From a virus: DNA of 64,000 nt. Of the stretch, positions 2 to 21,187 are shown one piece after another (position 1 is the stretch's first letter; the number at the start of each line of letters is the position of its first letter). The stretch lies in IMG/VR virus record IMGVR_UViG_3300044619_001118, positions 10,284 to 74,283 of that record. One strand, given 5' to 3'. The position numbers were made by a program, and so were the translations under genes. The notes beneath the pieces were generated by a model. It had not been told where the DNA came from, made no database searches, and saw only the letters and a program-made list of their open reading frames with translations.

Positions 2-3000
2 TTAGAATTTGCAGACGGACGTGGAGTACCAGTTGATATAGTTGGTGAGGTTCCTGCAAATGTTCAAGGTAATGATAAGTATTTTTCATGGACAAAGGAT
101 GCACCTGGTAACTTTATAGAACCAGATTTTAAAGACCTTTCTAAAAAAATGAGAGATGTAGTCGATAACTATATAATTCATAAGAAAAAGGCACTGGATG
201 ACTCAGATGAAATTCGTGAAATCTTTACTTGGGAGAATGCTGCAAAGATTGCAAATAAAATTCTACAAGAATTTATGAATGAAGATAGTGGATTTGATGA
301 TTCTGTTGCTATTGTTCTTGCTCATGCAAATACTCCGCGTAGAAGACAATTACTAAAAGATTGCTTATCATCTATAAAAATGAAAACTATACTTTCAACA
401 AATTACACTGTTGATGAAGAAACTCAAAAAATGGCTGATTGGGTTGTTTACTCGAAAGAAAATCCAATTCTGTTAAAACATGAATTTCAAAAATATGGTG
501 TTGCTTATTTCAGATGGTGGAACGATGAAAATGGAAATAGAGTAACAGCCCCTTTCGAGTATGAACATGGTTATGCTGCATATGAACTGACAAAAAAAGG
601 TATTCAATATGCAAAACTACTTGGTAAAAAAAGAGTTCATATCATAAACTATGATTATATAATATCATCATCAACGTTGAATCAAAACGAAAAATTATTA
701 GACGAAAATGATATAGTTCTTTATAAGCATGGGGATTGGGACTTTGAACAAACTGCGTATTGTAGTGCTTTCTTTTCTGCTAAGATTGATATTGCTTCAT
801 CGTATTTCACAAAATATAAATCCAAAGAAGATTATTATCGTTCAATGAGTGGTTTCAATATTTTGGAAATTAATATGGCTAATCATTTTAAAGATTCCCC
901 CTATCGTATTTTTGAATCATCTATAAATGACCTTAAAATTGAAAACAAAGTAAATCAAGAACAGGCGGATAACATTACCACCCCATATGTGGAATATGAC
1001 ACGGAATTAAAACAAGATAAAAGTATAAAGGAGACAAAAATGGCACACAGAGAGCAACAAGAATATTGTAGTAAAATAAAAGATATATTCCCAGAATATT
1101 TTAAGGGAAAACGTGTTTTAGATATTGGCTCATTGGATATTAATGGGAACAATAAATACCTTTTTGATGGTTGTGATTATTTTGGATTGGATGTTGGTGA
1201 AGGAGAAAATGTTGATATTGTTTCTGTTGGTCATATATACGATGCACCAAATGAAACGTTCGATACTATTATTTCAACAGAAGTATTTGAACACGATATG
1301 TTTTATGAAGAAACTGTGAAAAACATTATGCGGATGTTGAAACCCGGTGGTTCATTTATTTTTACTTGTGCATCCACCGGCCGACCAGAACATGGGACAC
1401 GTAAGTCGGATGGGAGTTTTGCTGCACCACTACTTATACAAATATCGGAAAAATGGTCAGATTATTACAAGAATATTACAGAAAACGATATTCGTATTAT
1501 AGATGGATTCAATGAGGCATTTCCAGATGGTGTTTTTGAATATAACTCCGTTTCGGGAGATTTATATTTTTTTGGTGTCAAAGGTGGTATCGAATCCTTA
1601 AAAAAACAAATCTCTATAAAAAATGTATCTGATGTAGAGGTTTATTTGACCATAGACAGTGCGGATGATTTATTTCTAAATATTGACTCCAAATCAATCG
1701 TGAAAAAAGACCAAGAAATTATAATCGATATAACTTATGGTGGAGATATTTTATCACATACCGTAAAAACAAATCAACATGAATCAATAAGTCTTGGAAA
1801 ATACAAACGAGGACATACTGTTCGTGTTAGTGAATCTAATATAGAAATTTTTTCAAAATTCTTAGAAAAAACACCAGAATCATTTAGACGACGTAATAGA
1901 TTATTCGGTCTTGGTGTGGATGCAGGTGATGAGAATAAAATCTTTATGAATTTTGTAAACGGCCCATTTATAGAAATAAAAGGAAGTCAAGAATCTACAT
2001 ATATCGTTAAATTTATTGATGACGATAGTGAAAAGATTATTTATCAGACCACTATTAAAAATAATCAATGGGCTATGTGTAATAGAAAATGGTTTGTTAA
2101 TTGGAGAATAAGGATTGAGTATGAAAACGGTAAATTTTATGATTATAAAATCGATTTAAAAAATAGACGAGTATTTATCGTTTTTGAATCATCATCACTC
2201 GGTGACACAATTGCATGGATACCTTACGTTGAAGAGTTCAGAAAGAAACATGGATGTAATGTAATTGTTTCCACGTTCCATAATGAACTATTCCAATTAC
2301 AATATCCTGAAATTGAATTTGTAAAACCAGGGACAACTGTAAATAATTTGTATGGACTTTATCGTCTTGGATGGTTCCATGATGGAAATAATCCAAATTA
2401 TTCTATGAATAAATCTGACTTCACAAAGATACCGCTTCAACAAACAGCAACAGACATTCTTGGTTTAGATTTTGAAGAAATACGTCCTCGTATGAAATCA
2501 ATCGAACCGATGAAATCAGATAAACCATACATTTGTATTGCAAATCATTCGACTGCTCAATCGAAGTATTGGAACAATCCAACAGGTTGGCAAGAGTTAG
2601 TTGATTATGTCAAAGAACTTGGTTATGATGTCTATCTTCTATCCAAAGAAGAAGACGGTTACATGGGTAATAAAAATCCAAAGGGTGTAATAAAAGTTGA
2701 CGGAAAAACATTAGAAGAGATTGGTTCTATTCTTCTTGGTAGTAAAGGATTCATTGGACTTGGAAGTGGATTGTCATGGTTCTCTTGGGCTTTGGAGGTT
2801 CCAACCATTCTCATAAGTGGTTTCTCCGAGACATATCAAGAAATGAAGTCGGTATATCGAATAATAAATGAGTCTGTTTGTCATGGATGTTTTGCTCGTC
2901 ATACATTCGATAAGGGTGATTGGAATTGGTGCCCAGACCATAAAAATACAGATAGACAATTTGAATGTACAAAAGAAATATCGTTTGAAATGATTAAGCC

Positions 3001-3034
3001 AAATGTAAACAAAATATTAGGACTAAATAGATAA
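2..3034 (+). CDS. Multidomain glycosyltransferase, 5'-truncated: GT4-like C-terminus, unknown domain, class I SAM methyltransferase, AAH/TibC-family O-heptosyltransferase
   Basis: Frame is open from base 2, upstream of the ORF-track start at 149 (LEFADGRG...EPDF...FTWENAA, typical GT4 end). VLDIGSLDING is a SAM motif. The C-terminal part has SSSLGDTIAWIPY, STAQSKYWNNP.GW, FIGLGSGLSW, ISGFS and the four-Cys set CHGC...WCP...FEC characteristic of AAH/TibC. Confidence 0.85.
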   Translation, partial: LEFADGRGVPVDIVGEVPANVQGNDKYFSWTKDAPGNFIEPDFKDLSKKMRDVVDNYIIHKKKALDDSDEIREIFTWENAAKIANKILQEFMNEDSGFDDSVAIVLAHANTPRRRQLLKDCLSSIKMKTILSTNYTVDEETQKMADWVVYSKENPILLKHEFQKYGVAYFRWWNDENGNRVTAPFEYEHGYAAYELTKKGIQYAKLLGKKRVHIINYDYIISSSTLNQNEKLLDENDIVLYKHGDWDFEQTAYCSAFFSAKIDIASSYFTKYKSKEDYYRSMSGFNILEINMANHFKDSPYRIFESSINDLKIENKVNQEQADNITTPYVEYDTELKQDKSIKETKMAHREQQEYCSKIKDIFPEYFKGKRVLDIGSLDINGNNKYLFDGCDYFGLDVGEGENVDIVSVGHIYDAPNETFDTIISTEVFEHDMFYEETVKNIMRMLKPGGSFIFTCASTGRPEHGTRKSDGSFAAPLLIQISEKWSDYYKNITENDIRIIDGFNEAFPDGVFEYNSVSGDLYFFGVKGGIESLKKQISIKNVSDVEVYLTIDSADDLFLNIDSKSIVKKDQEIIIDITYGGDILSHTVKTNQHESISLGKYKRGHTVRVSESNIEIFSKFLEKTPESFRRRNRLFGLGVDAGDENKIFMNFVNGPFIEIKGSQESTYIVKFIDDDSEKIIYQTTIKNNQWAMCNRKWFVNWRIRIEYENGKFYDYKIDLKNRRVFIVFESSSLGDTIAWIPYVEEFRKKHGCNVIVSTFHNELFQLQYPEIEFVKPGTTVNNLYGLYRLGWFHDGNNPNYSMNKSDFTKIPLQQTATDILGLDFEEIRPRMKSIEPMKSDKPYICIANHSTAQSKYWNNPTGWQELVDYVKELGYDVYLLSKEEDGYMGNKNPKGVIKVDGKTLEEIGSILLGSKGFIGLGSGLSWFSWALEVPTILISGFSETYQEMKSVYRIINESVCHGCFARHTFDKGDWNWCPDHKNTDRQFECTKEISFEMIKPNVNKILGLNR

Positions 3035-3038
3035 CTTC

Positions 3039-3047
3039 ATATTTATA
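3039..3047 (+). promoter_or_regulatory. Putative late promoter motif ATATTTATA
   Basis: First copy of a motif found in about 18 intergenic gaps upstream of + strand genes (see findings). Confidence 0.7.
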
Positions 3048-3073
3048 GATATATTAATCTTATCATGGAGTAG

Positions 3074-4327
3074 TTGTTGGCAACATGGAATAAAATACTA
3101 GTTAGTGGGAGTAACGCAGAACTATCTGCGATTACTTCTTCGGCAGGTATATTAAGTTCTGGGTCTATAAGACTATCAAGTGGTAGTGAGTTATTAGGAA
3201 CTGCCTCATACGCTAGAAATTCAGCTATTAAATATCTAACTAGTAGTGTTCAAGATTTAACTAGTATAGAAGTAGCCGACTATGATAACAATATTGCAGT
3301 CACATTTATAAATGGTAGTTTAAAATTTATTTTTGGAACACCAACCGTTCCGTCTAGTATTGTACTTTCAACGAGTGGATTTAATGCAAACCGATTCAAT
3401 TTAGAAAATGATAATTACGATGTTAACGGCACTTGGAATAATGGTGGATATACAATACTATCTGCCTCATTATATACTGGTTCTGTATTGTTAACAGAAG
3501 TTTATAGTGGAACATCTTTGACTTCAAATTTAACAACAAGTGGTTCCCAATCGTATAGATTGCAATATACCGCAAGTTCTCCACTTGACGGTAGTATATA
3601 CTCCGGCTCAGCTACTGCGACTGGAACACTTTCAAAAACGAATCCAACCAGTCCTGTTCAAACAGAAACTGGAACTATTCAATTGGGTGTCACTTCAAAT
3701 CAAATTGAACAAGGTGCAACTGGAAGTATTGCAATATCATCAGTAACAAGTTCAGCTAATAGTTGGACTATAACTTCATTCGTTGCAACTGGTTCATTTG
3801 CATCAACAACAATACCTTTGTTTGGAAATTCAAATGGTGTGCAAGCAACTGGAACAGTTTTTGTAACAGGTTCAGCAACCGGTTCATCTGCTATAACGAT
3901 AACAACAACCGCAAATTATAACTCCGGTATATTAAATAATCCAGTTGTAACTACATCTGTAACCGATACTATTACTTATTCTAAAATTCGTAGTTTACGT
4001 TCTGGTGCATCTCCGTCATCAAGTTTTTCATCATCGGAATTGGAAACATTATCTTTGTGGGATACTACACTTGGTGGAAATGTTGGAACGATTTCAAAAG
4101 GAACAACGACTGCATCTGGTCAAAGTGTGACAATAACATGGACAGGTGATAAATATCATTACATTGTGTTTAATTCATCACTTTCAAACTTGACAAATAT
4201 TACAACTGCTGGATTCGGTGTATTATCTTCATTTACACTGAGTACGGTTGGTAGCTATAAAGTTTATAGAACAAATACATTACAAGCCGGTGGTGCCGGA
4301 ACATCAATAACATATGTCTTAACCTAA
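3074..4327 (+). CDS. Ser/Thr-rich virion structural protein (fibre or decoration)
   Basis: 417 aa, beta-rich and S/T/G-rich, about 14 [ST][GA]S motifs. GGAG at 3067 favours a TTG start at 3074 or 3077. Confidence 0.6.
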   Translation: MLATWNKILVSGSNAELSAITSSAGILSSGSIRLSSGSELLGTASYARNSAIKYLTSSVQDLTSIEVADYDNNIAVTFINGSLKFIFGTPTVPSSIVLSTSGFNANRFNLENDNYDVNGTWNNGGYTILSASLYTGSVLLTEVYSGTSLTSNLTTSGSQSYRLQYTASSPLDGSIYSGSATATGTLSKTNPTSPVQTETGTIQLGVTSNQIEQGATGSIAISSVTSSANSWTITSFVATGSFASTTIPLFGNSNGVQATGTVFVTGSATGSSAITITTTANYNSGILNNPVVTTSVTDTITYSKIRSLRSGASPSSSFSSSELETLSLWDTTLGGNVGTISKGTTTASGQSVTITWTGDKYHYIVFNSSLSNLTNITTAGFGVLSSFTLSTVGSYKVYRTNTLQAGGAGTSITYVLT

Positions 4328-4338
4328 AGAGATAATAA

Positions 4339-7300
4339 ATGCCAATTATATTACCTAGTGGATTTCAGATAACCAACAACGAGCCTGCGGATTCGAGGTA
4401 CTCCGTTGCTAACTCTGCATCTCGTTTAGGATTTTCTGCCGCAAATGTTTATGAGGGATTGACGGTATATCAAAGAGATACAAACAAATATTACATATTA
4501 ATTGATACGGGTAGTTATAATTCTGAATCTGGTTGGCAGGAAGTTGGAAGTGTTATGCAAACTGGTTCGTTTGCAACAACTGGTTCAAATATTTTTATAG
4601 GAACCGAAACTATAAGTGGGTCTTTGAACATATCTGGTTCATTGACGATAAACGGAACATCATACACTGCAGCAACTTCAGGGACATCTGGCACATCGGG
4701 AACTTCAGGAAGTTCAGGAACATCTGGCACTTCTGGTTCTTCAGGAACATCAGGTTCATCTGGTACTTCTGGTTCATCGGGGAGTTCAGGAACTTCAGGT
4801 TCATCTGGTACTTCTGGTTCTTCAGGAACATCAGGAACGTCTGGTTCATCAGGAACGTCTGGTTCATCAGGAACATCAGGTTCATCTGGTACTTCTGGTT
4901 CATCAGGAACGTCGGGCTCATCAGGAACTTCTGGTTCTTCAGGAACATCGGGTTCTTCAGGAACATCGGGTTCTTCAGGAACATCTGGTACATCTGGCTC
5001 CTCAGGAACATCTGGCACATCTGGCTCCTCAGGAACATCTGGTTCATCTGGAACTTCAGGTTCATCAGGAACATCTGGTACTTCTGGTTCTTCAGGAACT
5101 TCCGGTTCATCGGGAACATCTGGTTCAAGTGGTACATCGGGAACTGGATTTAACACAATATCAAATCCGTCCGATAACAGAGTTTTAACATCAGATGGAA
5201 CTACAAATGCAGCTTCGGCAGAATCTAATCTAACATTTGATGGGACAACTTTAACAGTTACTGGCGATGCAGTTGTTACTGGTAAACTGACTGTACAAGA
5301 ATTTTATACAGAATTAGTATCATCTTCAATAATTTTTGAAAGTGGTTCGACTAAGTTTGGTAATTCATTCGATGATACACACCAATTTACAGGTTCACTT
5401 CTTACATCTGGGTCGAATGTATTTATCGGTATTCAAACTGTAACTGGTTCTTTACGCACAAGTGGTTCTAATACTCTTATTGGTAATACCGAACTCACCG
5501 GTTCATTTAATGTAAGTGGTAGTCAAGCTTTTGTTGGCACTCAAACTGTAACTGGTTCACTTCTCACATCTGGCTCCAGTGTTCTTGTTGGTAACACTCA
5601 ACTTACAGGTTCATTTGATTTGACGGGTAGTCAAAATACAACTGGATATATCGGTTTCCTTCCAGTTGGGGCATTACCAATTCGAACAGACCAAACTGCT
5701 TCTTATATCTACACAAGTGGCTCAACGAATGACCTTTACTTTACACAACAACAAGGACCATTTACAAACACTACTCGTCTTCGTTGGCTGGAAGGTAATC
5801 TATATACTGGTCTGTTACACGGTGGTAGAATAACATCCGCATCCGCAACAACATTTAATGTTAGTTCTGGTAGTGGTATAATTGTTAATCTAAACGCTTC
5901 ACTTACAGATGACCCGTACCCAACTATTAAGTTTTTAAGATGGGACACATTCCAAAGTCAATCACTGATAAATCTAACATCAAGTATTCAAACATTCTTA
6001 GGTATAGATTCAAATGCACAAATAATCCAACAAACTGTACCGTGGAACAATGGCGAATATAACACTTCTCTTCAACTTGGGACAGTTCTTCACCAAAATT
6101 TATCAACTATAAATGGAACAATTTCTTACCCAAATGTTGCATACGGATACAAACAAAGAACTTATGACTTCATAAAGGCATTCGGTCCACTAAAACTTTC
6201 TGGATATACAATTGTACCAAGTTCTTCTCTTGGTCTTAATGTTGGTAGTGGAACTGCATTTGCAGATGGTAGAAATTATCAAACAGATCCAAATAATCCA
6301 AGTTATATAGTTGATCCTGGAACTGCGGTATCTAAAATATTTAGATATTACCAATCTGGTTCTGGATTCGTTCAAGATACAAACGGTGGTCTCGGTTACA
6401 CGGTAATTGATCCGGCTAATTATAATCTTAATGGTACACTAACCGCTGTACCGGGTGGTGGCTCGAACAGACAATGGTCTATACAGAGAGTTTTCTGGTA
6501 TCCGAATTCAGCAACAAAAGGTATTGTTGTTTATTATGGAAACGCAACATATGAATCCGCAACAGTTGCTATTGCAAATCTTCCATTTGAAACATTTAAT
6601 GAAGTAGAAAATACAAAACAAAATGCCATTTATTTAGGTGCAATGGCACTTAGAAATAATGCCGATTTTACAGATTCAACTTCCTATGTAATTTTACCTG
6701 GTGGTATATTCCGTTCCGTTGGTGGTCAAGGTGGTGGTGGAAATGTTCCAACAACAAGATTAACAGACTTATCTGACGTTGAAACAATTGGTGTTTTAGA
6801 CGGTGATGTATTAGTTTACGATGGTAATGCTAATATTTGGAGACATAATAAAACATTAACCGGAAATTATGCAGTAACTGGTTCTATTAATATAAGTGGT
6901 TCACTTGTAATAAATGGAACGTCATATATGGCAGCAACCTCTGGAACATCAGGAACATCTGGTATAAATGGCACATCTGGCTCTTCTGGAACGTCGGGAA
7001 GTTCAGGAACTTCTGGTTCATCGGGAACATCAGGTACTTCTGGTTCCTCTGGAACTTCTGGTTCTTCAGGTACTTCTGGTTCAAGTGGCACATCTGGTGA
7101 ATCAGGCACATCAGGAAGTTCAGGGACTTCAGGTTCATCGGGAACCTCTGGTTCTTCTGGAACATCAGGAACCTCTGGTGAATCAGGAACGTCAGGTTCA
7201 TCAGGAACGTCAGGTTCATCAGGAACGTCAGGTTCATCAGGAACATCTGGTTCTTCTGGAACATCTGGAACAGGATTTGATACAATAAACAATCCATCAA

Positions 7301-9330
7301 ACGGTAGAGTTTTACTTTCCGATGGTACAACAAATGCAGCTACTGCGTCTTCAAATATAACATTTATTGGTAATACATTTAATGTTACCGGTGATGCTAT
7401 TATTAGCGGAAAACTAACAGCACAAGAATTTTATACGGAATACGTTTCTTCTTCTATTATTTTTGAAAGTGGGTCTACCAAATTTGGAGATTCTCTCGAT
7501 GATATACATGATATAACGGGAAGTTTAAAAATTACTGGTAGTGTTTCTGTACGAGATTTGTCATTAAACAATTTATCTAAATTTGTTGTTTATGACGATA
7601 TAACTGGTCAATTCTATTACAACAATGCTGGTGCCGCCGGTTCAAGTGGAACATCTGGAACATCTGGGACATCTGGTCAAACTGGTACATCTGGAACTTC
7701 TGGTGTAAATGGAACATCGGGGTCATCTGGTAACTCAGGAACCTCAGGTTCATCAGGAACATCAGGTTCTTCAGGAACATCAGGTTCTTCAGGAACATCA
7801 GGTTCATCTGGTGAATCGGGAACCTCAGGTTCATCAGGAACTTCAGGTTCATCTGGTAATTCAGGAACATCAGGTTCATCAGGAACTTCAGGTTCATCGG
7901 GTAACTCAGGAACCTCAGGTTCATCAGGAACATCTGGTTCATCGGGTAATTCAGGAACATCTGGGTCTTCTGGGACATCTGGTTCATCTGGTAATTCAGG
8001 AACATCAGGTTCGTCTGGAACCTCAGGTTCATCTGGTAATTCTGGAACGTCTGGGTCTTCTGGAACATCAGGAAATTCAGGAACTTCAGGTTCATCGGGT
8101 AATTCAGGAACATCTGGTTCGTCTGGAACTTCTGGTGTAAATGGAACATCAGGTTCATCAGGAACTTCCGGCTCATCGGGTAATTCAGGAACTTCGGGTT
8201 CATCGGGAACTTCTGGCTCATCGGGTAATTCAGGAACATCTGGAAGTTCGGGAACTTCTGGTGTAAATGGAACATCTGGAAGTTCGGGAACTTCTGGTGT
8301 AAATGGAACATCTGGAAGTTCTGGAACTTCTGGTGTAAATGGGACATCGGGTTCATCAGGCACTTCTGGTATATCTGGTGCATCGGGAACTTCAGGTTCA
8401 TCAGGAACATCAGGTTCATCTGGTAATTCAGGAACTTCAGGTTCATCAGGAACATCAGGTTCATCTGGTAATTCAGGAACTTCAGGTTCATCAGGAACAT
8501 CAGGAACATCAGGAAATTCAGGAACTTCTGGTTCATCGGGTAATTCAGGAACTTCAGGTTCATCAGGAACATCGGGTTCTTCTGGTAATTCAGGAACATC
8601 AGGAAGTTCAGGAACTTCTGGTGTAAATGGAACATCAGGTTCTTCTGGTAATTCAGGAACGTCTGGGTCTTCAGGTACATCCGGTGCAGGGTTCAACACG
8701 ATAAACAACGCTGGTACTTTCCGTGTTCTACTATCGGATGGTACAACAAATGCAGCTACTGCCTCATCGAATCTATCTATAAACGGTACTGCTTTATCAC
8801 TCACAGGTTCAGCCACAATTTCAAGTTCCGCCAACTCACAACTTACTCTTATTGGTTCAGGTTCATCTAACCCAATCTTTAAGGTACAAGGTTCTCTTGG
8901 TGAATTGTTTGCGGTAACAGATTCAATGTCAGGTTCCCTTTTCTCCGTCAATGATATTTCAGGTCTTCCAATACTTGAAGTATTCTCGGATAATAGAATC
9001 CTTATGGGTGATATACAAGCCCCATCACTTTATACAACAAAGAGAAACTCACTTTCAACGGGTGTAACAACACTTTATAGTGTACCGACGGGTTCTTACA
9101 ATAGTGCTCACGTTGAGTATAATTGTGTGAGTGCCTCCAACGGAAGAGCTGGTACATTTACTGCATTTTGGATTGGTAGTACACTACAATTCAACGAAGT
9201 TTCAACAGTGGATGTTGGAAACTCAACAACACTAACTCTTTCAGGTAGTATATCGGGTGGAAACTTTAACTTACAGGCTTCTGCTTCAAGTGCATCATGG
9301 GTACTAAAGACAATTATTAGAGGTGTGTAA
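4339..9330 (+). CDS. Long fibre protein with three Gly-every-third (SGT/SGS) repeat tracts
   Basis: 1663 aa with three repeat blocks, each followed by a GF.TI.N....RVL.SDGTTNAA.A.SN module. The SSSIIFESGSTKFG module is duplicated, and there is an LTDLSDV...DGDVLVYD fibre motif. Confidence 0.75.
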   Translation: MPIILPSGFQITNNEPADSRYSVANSASRLGFSAANVYEGLTVYQRDTNKYYILIDTGSYNSESGWQEVGSVMQTGSFATTGSNIFIGTETISGSLNISGSLTINGTSYTAATSGTSGTSGTSGSSGTSGTSGSSGTSGSSGTSGSSGSSGTSGSSGTSGSSGTSGTSGSSGTSGSSGTSGSSGTSGSSGTSGSSGTSGSSGTSGSSGTSGSSGTSGTSGSSGTSGTSGSSGTSGSSGTSGSSGTSGTSGSSGTSGSSGTSGSSGTSGTGFNTISNPSDNRVLTSDGTTNAASAESNLTFDGTTLTVTGDAVVTGKLTVQEFYTELVSSSIIFESGSTKFGNSFDDTHQFTGSLLTSGSNVFIGIQTVTGSLRTSGSNTLIGNTELTGSFNVSGSQAFVGTQTVTGSLLTSGSSVLVGNTQLTGSFDLTGSQNTTGYIGFLPVGALPIRTDQTASYIYTSGSTNDLYFTQQQGPFTNTTRLRWLEGNLYTGLLHGGRITSASATTFNVSSGSGIIVNLNASLTDDPYPTIKFLRWDTFQSQSLINLTSSIQTFLGIDSNAQIIQQTVPWNNGEYNTSLQLGTVLHQNLSTINGTISYPNVAYGYKQRTYDFIKAFGPLKLSGYTIVPSSSLGLNVGSGTAFADGRNYQTDPNNPSYIVDPGTAVSKIFRYYQSGSGFVQDTNGGLGYTVIDPANYNLNGTLTAVPGGGSNRQWSIQRVFWYPNSATKGIVVYYGNATYESATVAIANLPFETFNEVENTKQNAIYLGAMALRNNADFTDSTSYVILPGGIFRSVGGQGGGGNVPTTRLTDLSDVETIGVLDGDVLVYDGNANIWRHNKTLTGNYAVTGSINISGSLVINGTSYMAATSGTSGTSGINGTSGSSGTSGSSGTSGSSGTSGTSGSSGTSGSSGTSGSSGTSGESGTSGSSGTSGSSGTSGSSGTSGTSGESGTSGSSGTSGSSGTSGSSGTSGSSGTSGTGFDTINNPSNGRVLLSDGTTNAATASSNITFIGNTFNVTGDAIISGKLTAQEFYTEYVSSSIIFESGSTKFGDSLDDIHDITGSLKITGSVSVRDLSLNNLSKFVVYDDITGQFYYNNAGAAGSSGTSGTSGTSGQTGTSGTSGVNGTSGSSGNSGTSGSSGTSGSSGTSGSSGTSGSSGESGTSGSSGTSGSSGNSGTSGSSGTSGSSGNSGTSGSSGTSGSSGNSGTSGSSGTSGSSGNSGTSGSSGTSGSSGNSGTSGSSGTSGNSGTSGSSGNSGTSGSSGTSGVNGTSGSSGTSGSSGNSGTSGSSGTSGSSGNSGTSGSSGTSGVNGTSGSSGTSGVNGTSGSSGTSGVNGTSGSSGTSGISGASGTSGSSGTSGSSGNSGTSGSSGTSGSSGNSGTSGSSGTSGTSGNSGTSGSSGNSGTSGSSGTSGSSGNSGTSGSSGTSGVNGTSGSSGNSGTSGSSGTSGAGFNTINNAGTFRVLLSDGTTNAATASSNLSINGTALSLTGSATISSSANSQLTLIGSGSSNPIFKVQGSLGELFAVTDSMSGSLFSVNDISGLPILEVFSDNRILMGDIQAPSLYTTKRNSLSTGVTTLYSVPTGSYNSAHVEYNCVSASNGRAGTFTAFWIGSTLQFNEVSTVDVGNSTTLTLSGSISGGNFNLQASASSASWVLKTIIRGV
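4678..5148 (+). repeat. Coding tandem repeat (SGT/SGS)n, block 1
   Basis: 9-nt period TCN-GGN-(A/T)CN, about 157 codons. Confidence 0.95.
6940..7275 (+). repeat. Coding tandem repeat (SGT/SGS/SGE)n, block 2
   Basis: Same period, about 112 codons. Confidence 0.95.
7639..8691 (+). repeat. Coding tandem repeat (SGT/SGS/SGN/VNG)n, block 3
   Basis: Same period, about 350 codons. Confidence 0.95.
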
Positions 9331-12793: not shown

Positions 12794-15700
12794 ATGCCTT
12801 TTATTAAAAACATAGTAGTACAGAAAACAAAGACTCTAGCGGCACCAGTTATACAATACTCACTTTGGGGTTGGGGGGATGGCACTGTTGGTCAAACGGA
12901 TAATGATATACTTACTTACGTTCCATATCCAGTAGATAATGGAACAACATGGGTGAGTGGGAGTGGTGGTGCCTCACATACAATGGCTATAAAAACAGAC
13001 GGAACTCTATGGGGTTGGGGTGCTAATGCATTCGGTCAACTTGGTGACCGTACTGTGATAAATAGAAGTTCTCCAGTTCAAATAGGAACTCTTACAAACT
13101 GGTTAAAAATTTCTCGCGCCGGTAATACTACATTGTCTATAAAAACAGACGGAGCACTTTGGGCATGGGGTTCAAATGCGTCGGGTCAATTAGGTGATGG
13201 TACTGTCATAAATAGAAGTTCTCCTGTTCAAATTGGAACTCTTACAAACTGGGCATCTGTCTCTGGTACAGTTTCACATACAATGGCTATAAAAACCGAT
13301 GGAACTCTTTGGGGTTGGGGACTTGGTTCATCTGGACAGATTGGTGACGGTACTATTATTTCAAGGTCTTCACCTGTTCAAATTGGAACTCTAACAAATT
13401 GGGCATCTGTTTCTGCTAATAGTCTTTACTCAATGGCTATAAAAACTGACGGAACTCTTTGGGGTTGGGGACTTGGTACATCTGGACAATTAGGTGATAA
13501 TACTGCTTTATCTAGAAGTTCTCCTGTTCAAATAGGAACTCTTACAAACTGGGCATCTGTCACTGGTGGTTCTGGTCATACAATGGCCATAAAAACAGAC
13601 GGAACACTTTGGGGTTGGGGTGCAAACACAAGCGGACAGATTGGTGACGGTACTACTACAACAAAGTTTTCACCTGTTCAAATTGGAACTCTAACAAACT
13701 GGGCATCTGTTATTGCTAGTGGTAATCCCGGCGGTAATCATACAATATCCATAAAAACCGATGGAACTCTGTGGGTTTGGGGTAATTCTACTTCTGGTCA
13801 ATTAGGTGACGGTACTACTAATGATAGAAGTTCTCCTGTTCAAATAGGAACTCTTACAAACTGGGCATCTGTTTCTGCTGGGTCATCCCATACAATAGCC
13901 ATAAAAACAGACGGAACAATATATACATGGGGAGCTGCATTATCTGGACAACTTGGATATACGATGCAACGTTCCTCACCTGTTCAAATTGGTGATGGTT
14001 ATTCTTGGTCAAACATTGATGCAGGCCGAATCGGCACCAGTGCAGGACTTCACACAATGGGTGTTAAAACCAATGGAACTCTATGGGGTTGGGGTGGAAA
14101 TCCATCTGGTCAACTAGGTGACGGTACTTTGATATTTAGAAGTTCACCTGTTCAAATAGGAACTCTTACAAACTGGTCATCTGTTGAATGTGGTACTGAT
14201 TCTTCATTTGGTTTGAAAACGGATAATACCTTATGGGGTTGGGGATACAACGTAAATTTTGAACTCGGAGACGGCACATCTACATCTAAGAGCTCCCCCG
14301 TTCAGATTGGAAGTTTATCATGGAAAAAAGTTTCAGCTGGTGCTGCGTTTACAGTTGCTATTTCATCTGATGATAAATTGCAATCATGGGGGTCTACTTC
14401 TGCTGGTAAACTTGGATTTGGATTTAATAACAGTCCTGTTCAATTAAATTCCACATATGATTGGTCAAGTGCAGCTGCATCTGCCGGAAGTATTATTGGA
14501 TTAAAAACAAACGGAACTCTGTGGTCATGGGGAAGTAATACACAAGGTGAACTCGGTTTAAATGATACAATAACTAGGTCATCACCCGTCCAAATAGGAA
14601 CAGATGTAAACTGGTATTCAATTGATATGGGATTCGAAATAGGCTCAACATCGGTCGGCGCGATAAAAACAGATGGTACACTTTGGACATGGGGGAACGG
14701 TGGTAGTGGACAGTTAGGTCATTCAAATACGGCAAATCGAAGTTCACCTGTTCAAGTTGGAACTTTAACAAGTTGGTCTAAAATCTCTGTTGGAACCGCA
14801 TGGATGATGGCATCAAGAACAGATGGAACTCTTTGGGTATGGGGTGGTTCTCCTAATTTTGGACAACTTGGTCAAAATAACACAAGTACCTTTAGTTCTC
14901 CTGTTCAAATAGGAACACTAAATACATGGTCACAAATTGCAGCAGGTCGATATAGCGCATTTGCTATAAAAACAGATGGAACATTATGGTCTTGGGGATT
15001 AAATACAAGTGGTGAACTTGGAGACGGAACAGTAATTAATAGAAGTTCTCCTGTTCAAATAGGAACTCTTACAAACTGGTCAAAAATATATGCCGGTGGT
15101 GATTCAACATCTGCTGGTTCAACGATAGCTATAAAAACAGATGGTACTCTTTGGATGTGGGGCCGATATGCATCCGATGGTACAACAGTTTCACGAAGTT
15201 CTCCTGTTCAAATAGGAACACTCACGAATTGGTTATCTGCGTCCTCTGGAGGAAATGTTTCGAACTTTGCAATAAAAACCAACGGAACTTTATGGACTCT
15301 AACTTCCTTTAGTAATGGAGATACTGGAGATGGAACTTATAATGGTAGAAGTTCTCCTGTTCAAATTGGTACTTTAACGTCATGGTCTTTTGCATTAGCG
15401 ACTAGTTCAACTGGTTATGCCATAAAAACTGATGGTTCTTTGTGGGGATGGGGTGGCAATGTATTGGCATACTATCCAAAAGTAATTCATGCTCAAAACA
15501 CTTCAAATATTATAAGACCCTGTATAATAGATGTGGATAATTGGGGTGAAGTTTCTGCTGGAGCTAGTTATTCTATGGCCATAAAAACAGACGGAACACT
15601 TTGGGGTTGGGGTAGAAACGGCAACGGTCAGTTGGGTGATAATACGACCACAACACGGTCTCAACTTGTTCAAATAGGCAATCTCACTGATTGGTCAAAA

Positions 15701-18196
15701 GTTTCTGCTGGTGATTCACACACGATGGCTATCAAAACCGACGGAACTCTATGGTCTTGGGGAACGGGAACTAGTGGTCAGTTGGGATTAGAATCAACAA
15801 CACCATCGTGGACTATTGACAGAGGAACTAACTGGGCAACAATTTCTGGAGGTGCTACATATACATTAGCCGTAAAAACAGATGGAACACTATGGTCTTG
15901 GGGGAATGGTCTTCTAGGCCGATTAGGCACCGGTAATACTACAAGTAGAAGTTCACCTACTCAAATTGGAACCCTCACAAACTGGTCATCTGTTTCTGCT
16001 GGTTTTGGTAATAATTTAGCCCTAAAAACTGATGGAACTATGTGGGGATGGGGACAAAATGCAAATGGAGAAATCGGAGATTTTACTTTAACTTCCAGAA
16101 GTTCTCCTGTTCAAGTTGGACTTAATGCAAGTAATTGGTTATCTGTTTCTATGGGTTCAAATCATGGAGTCGGAATCAAAACCGATTACACAATTTGGTC
16201 ATGGGGCGTTAATAGTTCAGGTCAACTTGGTGATGGCACCACAACTTCAACTAGTTTTCCTGCTCAAATTGGAACTGGCACAGACTGGTCAAAAGTTTCT
16301 TGTGGTCAAAATCACACAATTGCCATAAAAACAGATGGAACTCTTTGGGCATGGGGTGGAAATTCCGTTGGACAATTAGGTGATAATAATAGTCCATTTG
16401 GCAAAAGTTCACCTGTTCAAATTGGGACTCTTACAAATTGGTCATCTGTTTCCGCTGGTTCTAATAATTCACTTGCTATAAAATCGGATGGAACTTTATG
16501 GGCATGGGGCTCGAATACTAATGGACGATTGGGAATAACAACACCAGTTTTACCAATAAAATTGGATAGTGGTGCTAATTGGTCAACTGCTGGTTTATCT
16601 TCACATTCTATGGTTGTAAAAACCGATGGAACTCTATGGGGATGGGGATTAAATTCAAACGGACAATTAGGACTTAATGATACAATAAATAGATCGTCAC
16701 CTGTACAAATCGGCACAGACACTAATTGGTCAACTGTTGCTGCTAATTCTGGATTTACACTTGCTATAAAAACAGATGGAACACTTTGGTCATGGGGACA
16801 AAATTCAAATGGTCAACTTGGTCAGACTATATCAACTGGTATAAATCGTTCTTCACCCGTTCAAGTTGGTACTTTAACAAATTGGTCAAAAATATCAATA
16901 GGACCAAATTTTGCAACTTCTATTAAAACAGACGGTACTTTATGGGTGTGGGGTAGTAATGGAAACGCTCAACTCGGTTTAAATAATTTTACTCAACATT
17001 CTTCTCCTGTGCAAGTCGGCACAGACACTAATTGGTCTTCCATATCTGCCGGCGGTAACGCATTTTGTGTTGCTATTAAAACAGATGGAACACTATGGTC
17101 TTGGGGTAATAATACAAATGCTGAACTTGGACAAAATAATACCATATCTAGAAGTTCTCCTGTTCAAATAGGAACAGATGTAAACTGGTCAAGAATATCA
17201 GCCGGCGCATCTGTTACATTAGCTATAAAAACAGACGGAACTCTATGGGGATGGGGCGCCAATGCAGCATATTCTCAAATAGGTGATGGGACATCTACAA
17301 CTAGAAGTTCCCCTGTTCAAGTTGGTACGCTAACAAATTGGTCTTCCATATCTGTTGGTGGTCAAACATCCACTGCATTAAAAACAGATGGGACTCTATG
17401 GACATGGGGTGGCGGTTCAAATGGTGAATTTGGCGACGGAACTTTTACTTCCCCAAGAAATTCCCCAGTTCAAGTCGGCACTCGCACAGATTGGAAATCT
17501 GTATTTGCTGCTGGTTCAGTGCCAACCAGTATTTACCATGTAATGGCAATCGATACATCGAATAACTTATATGGGTGGGGAATAAATACCACAGGACAAC
17601 TTGGTTTAAATAATGTAGTATCATACAATTCAACTGGATATTCATCGCCAATTCAAGTGGGTACTCTTACAAATTGGGCATCTGTTTCTGCTAACGGTGG
17701 TAGTGGTGGTTCACATACAATTGCTGTAAAAACCGATGGAACTCTATGGGGTTGGGGTGGAAATCCATCTGCTCAATTAGGTGACGGTACTCTTGTAACT
17801 AGAAGTTCTCCTGTTCAAATAGGAACTCTTACAAATTGGTCGAGAATTTCTGCTGGTGGTGGACATTCAATATCAATAAAGACAGATGGTACACTACGTG
17901 CATGGGGTGGAAACACAAATGGCGAATTGGGTAGAGGATTCATAGCCGGCCCAGTTTCCCGTTCTTCACCTGTTCAATTGGGCGAAGACCAATGGACATC
18001 GGTTTATGCCGAAAATTCAAATACAATGGCAATCCGCTCAGATGGAACTCTTTGGGGGTGGGGTCTAAATACAGCCGGTTATATTGGAGATGGAACGGTA
18101 ATTTCTCGTTCATACCCCGTACAAATTGGTACATACTCTAAATGGAAACAAGTTTCTTCTGGTGCTTCTCATACCGTTGCTATTCGTGAAGAATAA
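12794..18196 (+). CDS. RCC1/BLIP-II repeat protein, 35 repeats (five 7-bladed beta-propellers), probable adhesin or receptor-binding protein
   Basis: Repeat AIKTDGTLWxWGxNxxGQLGDxTxxxRSSPVQIGTLTNW, counted 35 times by eye. Confidence 0.9.
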   Translation: MPFIKNIVVQKTKTLAAPVIQYSLWGWGDGTVGQTDNDILTYVPYPVDNGTTWVSGSGGASHTMAIKTDGTLWGWGANAFGQLGDRTVINRSSPVQIGTLTNWLKISRAGNTTLSIKTDGALWAWGSNASGQLGDGTVINRSSPVQIGTLTNWASVSGTVSHTMAIKTDGTLWGWGLGSSGQIGDGTIISRSSPVQIGTLTNWASVSANSLYSMAIKTDGTLWGWGLGTSGQLGDNTALSRSSPVQIGTLTNWASVTGGSGHTMAIKTDGTLWGWGANTSGQIGDGTTTTKFSPVQIGTLTNWASVIASGNPGGNHTISIKTDGTLWVWGNSTSGQLGDGTTNDRSSPVQIGTLTNWASVSAGSSHTIAIKTDGTIYTWGAALSGQLGYTMQRSSPVQIGDGYSWSNIDAGRIGTSAGLHTMGVKTNGTLWGWGGNPSGQLGDGTLIFRSSPVQIGTLTNWSSVECGTDSSFGLKTDNTLWGWGYNVNFELGDGTSTSKSSPVQIGSLSWKKVSAGAAFTVAISSDDKLQSWGSTSAGKLGFGFNNSPVQLNSTYDWSSAAASAGSIIGLKTNGTLWSWGSNTQGELGLNDTITRSSPVQIGTDVNWYSIDMGFEIGSTSVGAIKTDGTLWTWGNGGSGQLGHSNTANRSSPVQVGTLTSWSKISVGTAWMMASRTDGTLWVWGGSPNFGQLGQNNTSTFSSPVQIGTLNTWSQIAAGRYSAFAIKTDGTLWSWGLNTSGELGDGTVINRSSPVQIGTLTNWSKIYAGGDSTSAGSTIAIKTDGTLWMWGRYASDGTTVSRSSPVQIGTLTNWLSASSGGNVSNFAIKTNGTLWTLTSFSNGDTGDGTYNGRSSPVQIGTLTSWSFALATSSTGYAIKTDGSLWGWGGNVLAYYPKVIHAQNTSNIIRPCIIDVDNWGEVSAGASYSMAIKTDGTLWGWGRNGNGQLGDNTTTTRSQLVQIGNLTDWSKVSAGDSHTMAIKTDGTLWSWGTGTSGQLGLESTTPSWTIDRGTNWATISGGATYTLAVKTDGTLWSWGNGLLGRLGTGNTTSRSSPTQIGTLTNWSSVSAGFGNNLALKTDGTMWGWGQNANGEIGDFTLTSRSSPVQVGLNASNWLSVSMGSNHGVGIKTDYTIWSWGVNSSGQLGDGTTTSTSFPAQIGTGTDWSKVSCGQNHTIAIKTDGTLWAWGGNSVGQLGDNNSPFGKSSPVQIGTLTNWSSVSAGSNNSLAIKSDGTLWAWGSNTNGRLGITTPVLPIKLDSGANWSTAGLSSHSMVVKTDGTLWGWGLNSNGQLGLNDTINRSSPVQIGTDTNWSTVAANSGFTLAIKTDGTLWSWGQNSNGQLGQTISTGINRSSPVQVGTLTNWSKISIGPNFATSIKTDGTLWVWGSNGNAQLGLNNFTQHSSPVQVGTDTNWSSISAGGNAFCVAIKTDGTLWSWGNNTNAELGQNNTISRSSPVQIGTDVNWSRISAGASVTLAIKTDGTLWGWGANAAYSQIGDGTSTTRSSPVQVGTLTNWSSISVGGQTSTALKTDGTLWTWGGGSNGEFGDGTFTSPRNSPVQVGTRTDWKSVFAAGSVPTSIYHVMAIDTSNNLYGWGINTTGQLGLNNVVSYNSTGYSSPIQVGTLTNWASVSANGGSGGSHTIAVKTDGTLWGWGGNPSAQLGDGTLVTRSSPVQIGTLTNWSRISAGGGHSISIKTDGTLRAWGGNTNGELGRGFIAGPVSRSSPVQLGEDQWTSVYAENSNTMAIRSDGTLWGWGLNTAGYIGDGTVISRSYPVQIGTYSKWKQVSSGASHTVAIREE

Positions 18197-18289: not shown

Positions 18290-19315
18290 ATGAAAAACCG
18301 AGCAGATAAAATAGTACCGGGTCAAATGCACCCACTTGATATTGCACTCCAAGCCAGCATTAACGGTCATCCTGAAATTAGTGAAGATATTTTACGTTCT
18401 CAACCACAAGATGACCTTCGAGTTCTTTTCAATCTTGGTTGGCACGAAATGAGACATGGTAATCTCAAAAAGGCAATGGAACACTTTAACTACGGTCGGT
18501 ATATCGACGTATTTGGACTACCACCACTTCCAGGAAAAATTTGGAAGGATGAACCACTCGAAGGAAAAACACTTCTTTTCAGATGTGAAGGTGGTTATGG
18601 AGACCAAATTCTTAACTTTCGTTTTGCAAAACATTTTGTAGAAAAAGGTGCAAGAGTTCTTGTCTCTTGTGCACCAGAATTAAAAGAAATATTTTCTCGT
18701 CACGGATATATTTGTATTGACAATGAAGTTGCAATGGGTGCTCATTACGATTATTGGGTTCCAGCTATGTCAGCGGCATTTATCTTGGATATGGAATACG
18801 AAGACCTTGACGGTTCTCCATTTCTAAAACCAAAAGAACCAAGAACACTTTTCGCAAAGAAAGGAACTTTAAAGGTTGGTGTTCGTTGGTCTGGTAGTCC
18901 TGACTTTGAAGATGAACAACATCGTAGATTTGACCCAAATCTTATGATTGACCTTCACGATATTCCAAATACAACATTCTATTCACTTCAACGTGATGAA
19001 AATCTTGTTGATGGTTTGCCATTTGGTGATATGAGAGAACAAATGAAATCATGGGAAGATACTGCAAACATCATGGCAGATTGTGACATTATCATTAGTT
19101 CTTGTACCGCAACTGCACACCTTGCCGCGGCAATGGGTAAACCAACTTGGGTTCTAACTCCTATTATGCCTTACTATACTTGGGCAGTTCCTGGTGATGG
19201 TTCAAGGTGGTATGATTCGGTAAAGTTGTATCGTCAAGTAAAATATGGTGAATGGGATGTTCCATTCCAAAAGATTCGTGAAGACCTAACAAAGTTAGCG
19301 GAAAACCACAAATGA
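18290..19315 (+). CDS. GT9-like glycosyltransferase with short TPR-like N-terminus
   Basis: EGGYGDQI.NFRF, KVGVRWSGSP, FYSLQ, DTANIMADCDIIISSCTATAHLAAAMGKPTWVL, RWYDSVKLYRQ. Confidence 0.8.
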   Translation: MKNRADKIVPGQMHPLDIALQASINGHPEISEDILRSQPQDDLRVLFNLGWHEMRHGNLKKAMEHFNYGRYIDVFGLPPLPGKIWKDEPLEGKTLLFRCEGGYGDQILNFRFAKHFVEKGARVLVSCAPELKEIFSRHGYICIDNEVAMGAHYDYWVPAMSAAFILDMEYEDLDGSPFLKPKEPRTLFAKKGTLKVGVRWSGSPDFEDEQHRRFDPNLMIDLHDIPNTTFYSLQRDENLVDGLPFGDMREQMKSWEDTANIMADCDIIISSCTATAHLAAAMGKPTWVLTPIMPYYTWAVPGDGSRWYDSVKLYRQVKYGEWDVPFQKIREDLTKLAENHK

Positions 19316-20085
19316 AATTAGATGTAATTTTACGAACTCATGATAAACGAGAAATACACATTTCAAAATCACTTCGTTATTGTGGTGTCAATAAAACGAC
19401 GGTAGTAAAAAAATGTGTAAAGTCTCTTATAGAATCGTGTAATAATTCAGAACACGATATAACCTATTGGTGGTATGATGACCACTCTTCTGAAGAAACA
19501 ATACAAGAATTACACGAATTTTTTAGTAAGTCAAAACACCCATACAACTTTATTCCACTGGAAGAAGAAGGTTGGCGGTCAAGTGGTTTAGCTCAATTTG
19601 AACGTGGTAGAGATTCTGATGCTGATTTAGTTTACTTTGTAGAAGATGATTATCTTCATTATCCATCCGCAATCGATGAGATGGTTGATGCTTATACTAC
19701 GTTCAAGAAAAATTTGGGTAAAGAAATTTCAATCCATCCATTTGATGACCCAGATAATTACCTTCCGGTTTGGATTGAACCTTGCCGTATTGTTTACGGA
19801 AAAAATCGTCATTGGAGAACAAATCTACATACAACATTTACATTTCTCTGTAATCCAGAATTGGTTCGTGCAAATTGGCACATCTTCTATACCATGGCAA
19901 CTGAGTATGGTACTGTTTGGGGTGAGATGAATTACGTCAACGAATCAACGATGGTCAATAAACTGTGGAGAGATGACGTAACTTTGTTTACACCGATTCC
20001 GTCAGTAGCTTTACACATGGCATATGAAACACAGAAAGACCCTTATTTGGATTGGAAAGAACTTTGGGATAGGTTTGAAATATGA
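19312..20085 (+). CDS. GT-A fold (GT2-like) glycosyltransferase
   Basis: YDDHSS and LVYFVEDDYLH (DxD-type) motifs. ATGA overlap with the upstream gene. Confidence 0.65.
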   Translation: MKLDVILRTHDKREIHISKSLRYCGVNKTTVVKKCVKSLIESCNNSEHDITYWWYDDHSSEETIQELHEFFSKSKHPYNFIPLEEEGWRSSGLAQFERGRDSDADLVYFVEDDYLHYPSAIDEMVDAYTTFKKNLGKEISIHPFDDPDNYLPVWIEPCRIVYGKNRHWRTNLHTTFTFLCNPELVRANWHIFYTMATEYGTVWGEMNYVNESTMVNKLWRDDVTLFTPIPSVALHMAYETQKDPYLDWKELWDRFEI

Positions 20086-20693
20086 ATAAAAGAGACGATT
20101 TAAAATATGACTATGATTGGTTTAGTAAGAATTTAGCAGAAATTCTTTTTTCGGTAAAACCAACAATAAAAGAAATTAAAAATCCAAAAATACTTGAAAT
20201 CGGTGGATTTGAAGGACGGTCTACTAGATGGTTTATCGAAAACTTTCTAAACGATGGCGGAGAATTGCATTGTATTGATACATGGGAAGGTAGTTTGGAA
20301 CACGATGAAATGGACATGGATTTCTCCAGTATCTACGATGTGTTTTCTCACAACCTTCGAGAATATATTGATGACGGAACTTGTATAGTTCATCGTGGTA
20401 TGTCAAAAGATATTTTACCAAAACTTTTATCAGAAGGACATCAATTTGATTTTATCTATGTTGACGGAAGTCACCTTGCATCGGATGTTATTATTGATGG
20501 AGTTCTTTCTTATCTATTATTAAAAACGGGTGGTATTCTTGCTTTTGACGATTATATGTATGGGTACACGGATAAAAGACCGTATGATATACCACACCAT
20601 GCAATAAACTTCTTTGATTCTGCATTTAGAGACAGAGGAAGAATTGAACTTCTCGGTTTAAATTTAATGGCAACTTATAAAAAGTTAGAATAA
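20082..20693 (+). CDS. Class I SAM methyltransferase (Methyltransf_24-like)
   Basis: ILEIGGFEGRST, CIDTWEGS, FDFIYVDGSH, LLKTGGILAFDDY. Confidence 0.85.
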   Translation: MNKRDDLKYDYDWFSKNLAEILFSVKPTIKEIKNPKILEIGGFEGRSTRWFIENFLNDGGELHCIDTWEGSLEHDEMDMDFSSIYDVFSHNLREYIDDGTCIVHRGMSKDILPKLLSEGHQFDFIYVDGSHLASDVIIDGVLSYLLLKTGGILAFDDYMYGYTDKRPYDIPHHAINFFDSAFRDRGRIELLGLNLMATYKKLE

Positions 20694-20737: not shown

Positions 20738-21187
20738 ATGAGATACGTGTATGTCCAAGACGAACAAGTAATAGAAGGGCCGGTAATGTTACCAATAAAT
20801 TGGAATAACATTTCCAATTTTAATGTATTAGATAACATTACTCTTAAATCATATGGGTGGTATCCACACAGATTTTTAGAGATACCATTGAACGATGATG
20901 AAGTGTATGATGGTAGTTATTATGTTATAGAAGAAAATGAAGTCGTTGAGTATCAAAGAAAACGCCAAAAGACACAGGAAGAAATCCAAAGTGAAATTAA
21001 TGGTAGATGGGATAACATTAGGTCACGGAGAAATATATTACTCGGAGAATCTGATTGGACACAACTTGCAGATGTTTCATTGTCAGATGAAAAAAAAGAA
21101 GAATGGAAATTGTATCGCCAATCACTAAGAGACATAACAAATTTCGATAGTCCAGACCACGTAATATGGCCAAATAAGCCGGAGTAA
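20738..21187 (+). CDS. Tail fibre assembly chaperone
   Basis: W..IRS.RN.LL.ESDWTQL.D...W..YRQ.LRDI....V.WP.KP. Preceded by a double late motif at 20706-20720. Confidence 0.8.
   Translation: MRYVYVQDEQVIEGPVMLPINWNNISNFNVLDNITLKSYGWYPHRFLEIPLNDDEVYDGSYYVIEENEVVEYQRKRQKTQEEIQSEINGRWDNIRSRRNILLGESDWTQLADVSLSDEKKEEWKLYRQSLRDITNFDSPDHVIWPNKPE

Follow-up and report, generated by a model that had tools for sequence, protein, structure and literature searches.

The stretch of DNA analysed in this study (the window, 64,000 nucleotides) corresponds to bases 10284-74283 of a single 74,283-bp IMG/VR virus contig, IMGVR_UViG_3300044619_001118. It opens within a gene for a multi-enzyme protein that lies among genes for collagen-like tail fibres and includes a domain of the type found in the bacterial protein O-glycosyltransferases TibC and Aah. 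The contig has a completeness of 44% as judged by CheckV, and its + strand holds every long open reading frame (ORF). A myovirus virion module is encoded, comprising fibres, terminase, a T4-type portal, the major head protein, sheath and tape measure, and the source is a lake-type myovirus. The region yields no match to GenBank phages by megablast. The closest isolated phage is Microcystis phage Mel-JY01 (portal 77% identical), followed by Flavobacterium phage immuto at 51%.

Genes and domains at the locus

The full multi-enzyme ORF encodes 1312 amino acids (contig positions 9379-13317) and is cut by the edge of the window (Table 1). Genes in this part of the late virion module are arranged on one strand in the order fibre (165 amino acids of Gly-X-Y repeat), 695-amino-acid fibre protein, multi-enzyme protein, 417-amino-acid Ser/Thr-rich protein and fibre (621 amino acids of Gly-X-Y repeat), such that fibre genes flank the enzyme gene on both sides. 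The first of these fibres, a protein of 1217 amino acids with a tract of the same type, is encoded farther upstream, outside the window. Profile searches of the neighbours of the enzyme gene revealed no autotransporter domain, but instead collagen-like fibres and Ser/Thr-rich proteins.

The GT4 domain of the multi-enzyme protein (residues ~110-390) exceeds the Pfam gathering score with both PF00534 (E = 5.5e-10) and PF13692 (E = 3.8e-10), and also gives a weak match to PF13439. The segment that follows (residues 395-648) matches no family, and an AlphaFold2 model based on a 20-sequence alignment, with a predicted local distance difference test score (pLDDT) of 85, suggests a GT-A fold. Foldseek relates this model to 3cgx, glycogenin, SpsA and hyaluronan synthase (E ~1e-5) with TM scores of only 0.4-0.5, and sugar nucleotidyltransferases match equally well. 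The domain contains an invariant Asp within a Y-D motif, and many other phage proteins have it immediately ahead of their TibC-like domain. Among named Atlas clusters, WavE is the nearest (0.88), a match that we treat only as a lead.

Beyond the methyltransferase domain, the C-terminal portion of the protein matches TIGR04414, the NCBIfam equivalog model for Aah/TibC, with 300.2 bits (cut-off 200) over model positions 11-374 of 374, and aligns with the sequence of PDB entry 4RAP along its whole length (residues 18-386, E = 5e-70). Its AlphaFold2 model (pLDDT 90) superimposes on 4RAP/4RB4 with a TM score of 0.88 and a root-mean-square deviation of 2.8 Å, and the next-best Foldseek matches are GT9 lipopolysaccharide (LPS) heptosyltransferases with TM scores of ~0.5. 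The catalytic Asp, equivalent to D110 of TibC and part of an LGD motif, is encoded at 2204-2206. By sequence, predicted fold and catalytic residues, the window enzyme is a genuine TibC/Aah-family protein O-glycosyltransferase. An initial annotation of this DNA, prepared without database searches, had described the gene ending at 3034 as carrying a full AAH/TibC-like domain, including its four Cys, fused to GT4 and methyltransferase domains. Hidden Markov model, fold and residue comparisons bear out the first part of this description and Pfam and PHROG matches the second, to which a putative GT-A-fold domain is now added; the structural comparison with TibC that it had suggested as a check yielded the match given above.

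TibC-like domains in other phages have GT4, the GT-A-fold domain, GT25 and methyltransferases as fusion partners, in an order that varies, with the methyltransferases drawn from four families (Methyltransf_23, Methyltransf_24/CmcI-like, Methyltransf_21/FkbM and Methyltransf_31). This repeated independent joining of priming and extending transferases with sugar-type O-methyltransferases fits the production of a short methylated O-glycan.

The presence of two Ser/Thr-rich genes directly after the enzyme gene, at 3074-4327 and 4339-9330, agrees with the initial annotation. The product of the first (34% Ser+Thr) gave no family match in profile searches, and its one homologue found is encoded by another phage that has both a tract and a TibC-like gene. 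The product of the second is a collagen-like tail fibre (24% Ser, 14% Thr, 19% Gly) whose three tracts total 207 strict Gly-X-Y triplets, or 621 amino acids, in keeping with the 'about 620 residues' of repeat that had been reported. Position X is occupied by Thr or Ser (with a few Asn, Val and Glu), position Y is Ser in 195 of the 207 triplets, and no Pro is present. The features that stabilise other collagens, namely Pro or hydroxyproline and charged pairs at X and Y, are missing from the tracts. The earlier view of this sequence as a loose, mucin-like Ser/Gly/Thr repeat therefore has to be replaced by that of a strict collagen-like Gly-X-Y repeat, which likewise does not resemble the strand-loop-strand repeats of AIDA-I. 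The underlying DNA repeats are degenerate (65-77% matches), which indicates that the triplet pattern has been kept by selection at the protein level and reflects neither recent expansion nor chance. After tract 1, and again after tract 2, comes the same conserved module (G-T-G-F-N/D-T-I...), with an S-S-S-I-I-x-x-S-G-S-T-K-F-G...D-D-x-H-x-F-T-G-S motif next in line. This motif is also repeated in the 695-amino-acid protein encoded immediately before the enzyme and in the 'structural protein' of Mel-JY01.

Table 1. Features of the window and, in the last two rows, of bacterial comparison loci (prefixed L)
Feature	Position	Strand	Evidence or remark
3' 1010 codons of the multi-enzyme gene	2..3034	+	start codon 905 nt upstream of the window
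GT4 (GT-B, Glycos_transf_1) domain, C-terminal end	2..265	+	PF00534/PF13692/PF13439; most of the domain upstream of the window
GT-A-fold, nucleotide-diphospho-sugar transferase-like domain	278..1039	+	AlphaFold2 and Foldseek, recurrence, invariant columns
S-adenosylmethionine (SAM)-dependent methyltransferase domain, residues 649-830	1040..1582	+	PF13489 E 2e-10; phrog_32762 E 3e-51
TibC/Aah-type protein O-glycosyltransferase domain, residues 940-1307	1919..3031	+	N-terminal beta-barrel, GT-B core, four-Cys iron finger
417-amino-acid Ser/Thr-rich protein	3074..4327	+	TTG start preceded by GGAG
1663-amino-acid collagen-like tail fibre	4339..9330	+	Pfam Collagen (PF01391) E 3e-82; PHROG tail-fibre families
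Gly-X-Y tract 1, 52 triplets	4681..5148	+	X = Thr/Ser, Y = Ser
18-residue T-G-S...S-G-S beta-type repeats (108-nt double unit)	5433..5634	+	alternative acceptor candidates
Gly-X-Y tract 2, 37 triplets	6943..7275	+	
Gly-X-Y tract 3, 118 triplets	7630..8691	+	
Separate GT2-family glycosyltransferase gene	19312..20085	+	PF00535 E 3e-5; same late block
Separate methyltransferase gene (Methyltransf_24)	20082..20693	+	PF13578 E 4e-15
Tail-fibre assembly chaperone	20738-21187	+	PF16778 E 2e-16
Two-gene cassettes: stand-alone TibC-like gene and (GTS/GTA/GTT)n partner	L213:3667-4152, L214:11211-11576, L217:11273-11686	-	
Two-gene cassettes: stand-alone TibC-like gene and (GTS/GTA/GTT)n partner	L218:7240-8229, L220:8853-9815	+	

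Pairing of TibC-like domains with Gly-X-Y tracts

TibC-like domains were found in 4 of 50,697 GenBank phage records and in 398 IMG/VR contigs. For a forward test of co-occurrence, the best 80 IMG/VR loci anchored on the domain were searched for a Ser/Thr-rich, Pro-free Gly-X-Y ORF within 10 kb. Such an ORF is present at 41 of the 80 loci, in about 25 cases immediately downstream, and a relaxed pattern that allows Gly at X and Y adds merely one locus. Thirty related loci anchored on the neighbouring SbcCD-like nuclease gene (position-matched, at least 7 kb downstream) served as controls, and these carry the tract in only one case and the enzyme in none (Fisher p = 1.3e-6 for 1/30 versus 41/80). 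In the reverse direction, a DNA pattern for six Gly-(Ser/Thr-type)-(Ser/Thr-type) triplets was applied to arbitrary viral stretches, and the enzyme was encoded in 6 of 80 short stretches. When contigs of at least 97 kb were picked by the tract alone, TIGR04414 scored above its cut-off in 10 of 13, including all four that are at least 90% complete. The co-occurrence that the initial annotation had put forward for checking thus lies far above background in both directions.

The enzyme gene can be upstream or downstream of the tract gene, on the opposite strand or 35 kb apart, this last distance being that of a giant tract gene in a complete genome with no tract near the enzyme. Mel-JY01 carries both enzyme and tract, and immuto and LR756508 carry neither. 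Neither the strict six-triplet pattern nor the annotated coding sequences of Mel-JY01 reveal a Gly-X-Y repeat, as the pattern is interrupted by Asp and Arg. This phage was considered as an example of an enzyme without a tract, and was rejected as such on finding that an unannotated + frame at positions 2-3049 encodes 1016 collagen-like amino acids. This frame of the record (PP395634.1) is rich in GSS, GTS, GTR and GTD triplets; the record annotates two minus-strand hypothetical coding sequences there (1-651 and 739-2298) and appears to have been linearised inside the collagen-like fibre gene.

Bacterial homologues provide a comparison outside phages. Among 79 prokaryote loci, a Ser/Thr-rich tract gene is adjacent to the enzyme gene in 10 of the 12 that are most phage-like (43-49% identity), versus 2 of the 67 classical loci (29-39% identity; Fisher p = 2.9e-9), and the pairing proposed for the phage therefore recurs independently in bacteria. 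The partner encoded in Polaromonas, Burkholderiaceae and Methylococcales metagenome-assembled genomes is a small protein in which (GTS/GTA/GTT)n comes after a signal peptide or lipobox. Nothing but the tract is shared between these two-gene cassettes and the phage fibres, which makes them the best single argument for the tract as the acceptor. In a FastTree phylogeny of 135 domains, a branch marked 99 separates all 56 phage domains and 8 tract-linked bacterial loci from the classical bacterial autotransporter heptosyltransferases (BAHTs), which include the Aah encoded beside AIDA-I. Since the phage and the tract-linked bacterial domains form a single clade, the number of independent events behind the association may be small.

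These data also bear on which part of the fibres would be modified. The enzyme might glycosylate the phage fibres at Ser-rich beta-type repeats and junction modules (T-G-S...S-G-S 18-mers, I-S-S-S and S-G-S-T-K-F-G) rather than at the tracts. Motifs of this type recur in the fibre, in the 695-amino-acid protein before the enzyme and in the Mel-JY01 'structural protein' directly preceding its enzyme. They are nearer in kind to the strand-loop-strand sites of natural TibC acceptors, which are beta-helix loops, and at half of the TibC-anchored loci a long tract is missing from the vicinity, with giant Ser/Thr-rich structural proteins encoded at some of these. However, the bacterial cassettes have only the Gly-Thr-Ser tract in common with the phage fibres and hold no beta repeats, and the genome-level association was obtained from the tract alone. 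We therefore consider the beta-type repeats to be unlikely as the acceptor.

Several other proteins were noted in the relatives and in the flanking DNA. One locus (L066:3-7388) encodes a giant (>2460 amino acids) Ser/Thr-rich structural protein 3 kb upstream of a stand-alone TibC-like gene, with only a short Gly-Thr-Ala/Gly-Thr-Gly run and, by eye, an intein-like insert and a C-terminal chaperone-like end. The large terminase of a close relative, G016 (L377:12970-15705, - strand), is 912 amino acids long and has a weak Hint-domain match (E = 9e-4) that suggests an intein insertion; a 789-amino-acid protein encoded after the fibre in this relative gave no Pfam match. Upstream of the window (L001:340-3510), a single ORF of 1056 amino acids joins an Mre11/SbcD-type phosphoesterase domain to an SbcC-type ATPase, and relatives of this SbcCD-like ORF are encoded in 576 viral contigs.

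Donor site and identity of the sugar

The structure of TibC (PMC4358343) identifies Asp-110 as catalytic, Thr-226 and Lys-230 as phosphate contacts, Trp-305 as a heptose contact and Cys-339, Cys-342, Cys-358 and Cys-370 as the iron finger. Arg-286 is the sole contact to adenine (N1) and is called the basis of ADP specificity, and its replacement (R286A) leaves activity abolished or largely diminished (PMC4358343). The equivalents of D110, T226, K230 and W305 and all four Cys are retained by the window enzyme and, without exception, by the 56 phage domains compared. The equivalent of Arg-286 is Ile in the window enzyme and V, I, L, A or T in all 66 members of the phage/Gly-X-Y clade, versus Arg in 69 of 69 classical members. 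An adenine-pocket motif, D-x-T-G...P-L-x-E-R, is invariant in the 69 classical members and replaced throughout the phage/Gly-X-Y clade.

This loss is one point in favour of a reading in which the co-occurrence of enzyme and tracts reflects only shared descent and linkage in the fibre module of one phage lineage, with no enzyme-substrate relation, and in which the TibC-like domain could be a decayed or repurposed fold. All phage domains do belong to a single clade, so that many co-occurrences are inherited, and there are exceptions both ways, with enzymes that lack a tract and tracts that lack an enzyme. We nevertheless assign this possibility little probability. Across 66 clade members at 44-63% identity there is no change in the catalytic Asp, the phosphate-binding Thr and Lys, the Trp that contacts the sugar or the four Cys, a pattern that speaks for purifying selection on activity. 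Furthermore, the arrangement of enzyme and tract genes varies as described above, and the bacterial cassettes repeat the pairing outside phages.

It is also unlikely, in our judgement, that the multi-enzyme protein acts on the host during infection, modifying its surface proteins or the sugars of its LPS or capsule (as a block to superinfection, for instance), with its location among fibre genes being incidental. The domain fits the protein-specific BAHTs and not the LPS heptosyltransferases (TM score of 0.88 versus ~0.5; 300 versus 30 bits), the beta-barrel and iron finger of TibC are retained, the association with tracts is also found in bacteria without a phage context, and the enzyme gene is located within the late virion block. 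These points have to be set against the roles usually proposed for phage glycosyltransferases, which are host-surface or DNA modification, against the typical occurrence of GT4, GT2 and methyltransferase domains in polysaccharide synthesis, and against an adenine pocket unlike that of the proven protein heptosyltransferases.

The initial annotation had proposed heptosylation with ADP-heptose as the donor. This is now doubtful, because Arg-286 and the pocket motif are replaced across the clade and because neither this contig (44% complete) nor a complete 183-kb relative nor Mel-JY01 yielded a gmhA or rfaE-II (rfaE-domain-II) gene. The label 'heptosyltransferase' is thus unproven; judging from the sequences, heptose is a possible but not a probable identity for the attached sugar, and the donor may perhaps be other than ADP-heptose. 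To our knowledge, the LPS heptosyltransferases WaaC and WaaF likewise lack Arg-286, and the altered residue is therefore a hint at another donor or binding mode and no proof of it.

Two further candidates for donor evidence were rejected. The bacterial cassettes are surrounded by housekeeping genes (e.g. TctC, DEAD helicase, EamA) and are uninformative in this respect. A GmhA-like gene in a 219-kb phage contig (G002) sits in a NeuB/DegT/CMP-transferase cluster of the nonulosonic-acid type. This cluster (L293:4162-12330) encodes NeuB, a DegT aminotransferase, a SIS isomerase, epimerase/dehydratases and a CMP-type cytidylyltransferase, and the same contig also encodes a 1535-amino-acid TibC-like fusion and a giant tract fibre.

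Two additional genes of the window might contribute to glycan synthesis. A 754-amino-acid CTP_transf_like protein (21191-23455), considered as a candidate heptose adenylyltransferase, has a weak N-terminal cytidylyltransferase-like domain, belongs to virus-only clusters, gives only weak matches of the nicotinamide mononucleotide (NMN)-adenylyltransferase type and is conserved in Mel-JY01 as a 'cytidylyltransferase like protein'; it may have a role in sugar activation. The separate GT2 gene could possibly provide a further glycan-building step. The fibre region also encodes an 1800-amino-acid protein (12794-18196) that consists almost entirely of RCC1 repeats (28-29 Pfam repeat matches).

Proposed function and relation to known systems

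We propose, with a probability of about 0.6, that the 1312-amino-acid protein acts in the cytoplasm to start, lengthen and methylate O-glycans carried by the phage's own fibres on their Gly-(Thr/Ser)-Ser tracts. The C-terminal TibC-type domain would transfer the first sugar onto Ser/Thr hydroxyls of the Pro-free tracts, either ahead of trimerisation or in the course of it. Extension of the glycan would fall to the fused GT4 and GT-A-fold domains, and the methyltransferase domain would cap or decorate it. The product would be a densely O-glycosylated collagen-like rod, to which tract 3 alone would contribute ~100 nm if a triple helix forms. The glycan might take the place of proline and hydroxyproline and stiffen, hydrate or shield the helix. 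We infer the identity of the tracts as the acceptor, the order of the enzyme steps and the role of the glycan.

Several observations weigh against this proposal. The glycan on the fibres is a prediction from gene content. No tract lies within 10 kb at about half of the TibC-anchored loci, LR756504 combines a stand-alone TibC-like gene with the absence of any tract, a 30-kb fragment of the close relative G016 has a tract fibre and no enzyme in the available part, and 3 of the 13 large tract contigs, all of them fragments, lack the enzyme. The phage examples are mutually related, such that the counts are not independent events, and the tree requires only one origin for the phage/Gly-X-Y clade. 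The Ile in place of Arg-286 is a further discrepancy. In addition, TibC is a dodecameric ring that acts on a beta-helix, whereas a collagen-like chain and a 1312-amino-acid fusion present a different geometry; the iron finger needed for assembly of the TibC ring is present in the window enzyme, behind a 940-amino-acid N-terminal fusion.

The closest known systems are the pairs TibC-TibA and Aah-AIDA-I (E. coli BAHTs; TIGR04414; PDB 4RAP/4RB4; eLife 2014, PMC4358343), in which TibC and Aah hyperglycosylate neighbouring substrates in the cytoplasm. The window enzyme belongs to the same family by its full-length profile match and shares the fold, the catalytic Asp, the Thr, Lys and Trp contacts and the four-Cys iron finger. 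As with TibC and Aah, whose substrates are modified many times, its gene is found beside a highly repetitive Ser/Thr-rich candidate substrate. In contrast to those systems, the neighbour is a phage Gly-X-Y fibre rather than a beta-helical autotransporter, and the TibC-type domain closes a chain of four fused catalytic domains. The enzyme-plus-neighbouring-substrate layout on which the initial annotation was built is thus upheld with respect to the enzyme family, the fibre neighbours and the recurrent pairing, but the candidate acceptor is collagen-like and heptose is doubtful.

The nearest precedent for a glycosylated, methyl-decorated prokaryotic collagen is BclA, which has Pro-rich (GPT) repeats of the Gly-X-Thr type whose Thr residues carry O-linked oligosaccharides. 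BclA differs from the window fibre in its Pro-rich repeats, in relying on glycosyltransferases unrelated to TibC and in being a spore protein rather than a virion protein. It is a collagen-like exosporium glycoprotein of Bacillus anthracis, and its terminal sugar, anthrose, is methylated (PMC7793302, PMC10050317). Mycobacteriophage glycosyltransferases modify the phages' own virion proteins, according to work cited in PMC12801897 (Freeman et al. 2023, Cell Host Microbe 31:1216, PMC10527164). The present proposal likewise has a phage-encoded glycosyltransferase act on proteins of its own virion. The mycobacteriophage targets are reportedly the C-termini of capsid and tail-tube proteins, not collagen-like fibres, and the enzymes are said to lie outside the TibC family. 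Collagen-type Gly-X-Y tracts are also present in E. coli O157:H7 prophage tail fibres (PMC3368898). These tracts are a feature in common with the window fibre, and no paired TibC-like enzyme has been described for them. The prophage triplets are reportedly rich in Pro and charged residues, and not purely Thr/Ser.

In our literature searches, no paper connected TibC-like enzymes with phages or with collagen-like proteins, and nothing relevant emerged on glycosylation of collagen-like tail fibres. The principle of an enzyme encoded beside its substrate is known from TibC and Aah, to which the present system adds a new class of substrate, a phage setting, a fusion of several enzymes and a changed donor pocket. 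A broader and more tentative view is that the phage/Gly-X-Y branch is a sister clade of the adhesin heptosyltransferases in which both partners have changed, with Pro-free collagen-like chains as the acceptor and, in a rebuilt adenine pocket, a donor other than ADP-heptose. O-glycans, extended and methylated by the fused domains, might then hold Pro-free helices together both in the fibres of aquatic phages, hundreds to thousands of them, and in small proteins secreted by certain freshwater bacteria.

Very few phages have been documented to glycosylate proteins of their own virions. With Mel-JY01, a cultured relative that carries both enzyme and tract, the proposal is directly testable. If it is correct, fibre stiffness, host recognition, protease resistance and antigenicity would have to be viewed differently in at least several hundred uncultured aquatic phages. 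The TibC/Aah family would gain a second substrate class and probably a second donor, and these fibres would be a natural model of collagen helices stabilised by sugars rather than by hydroxyproline.

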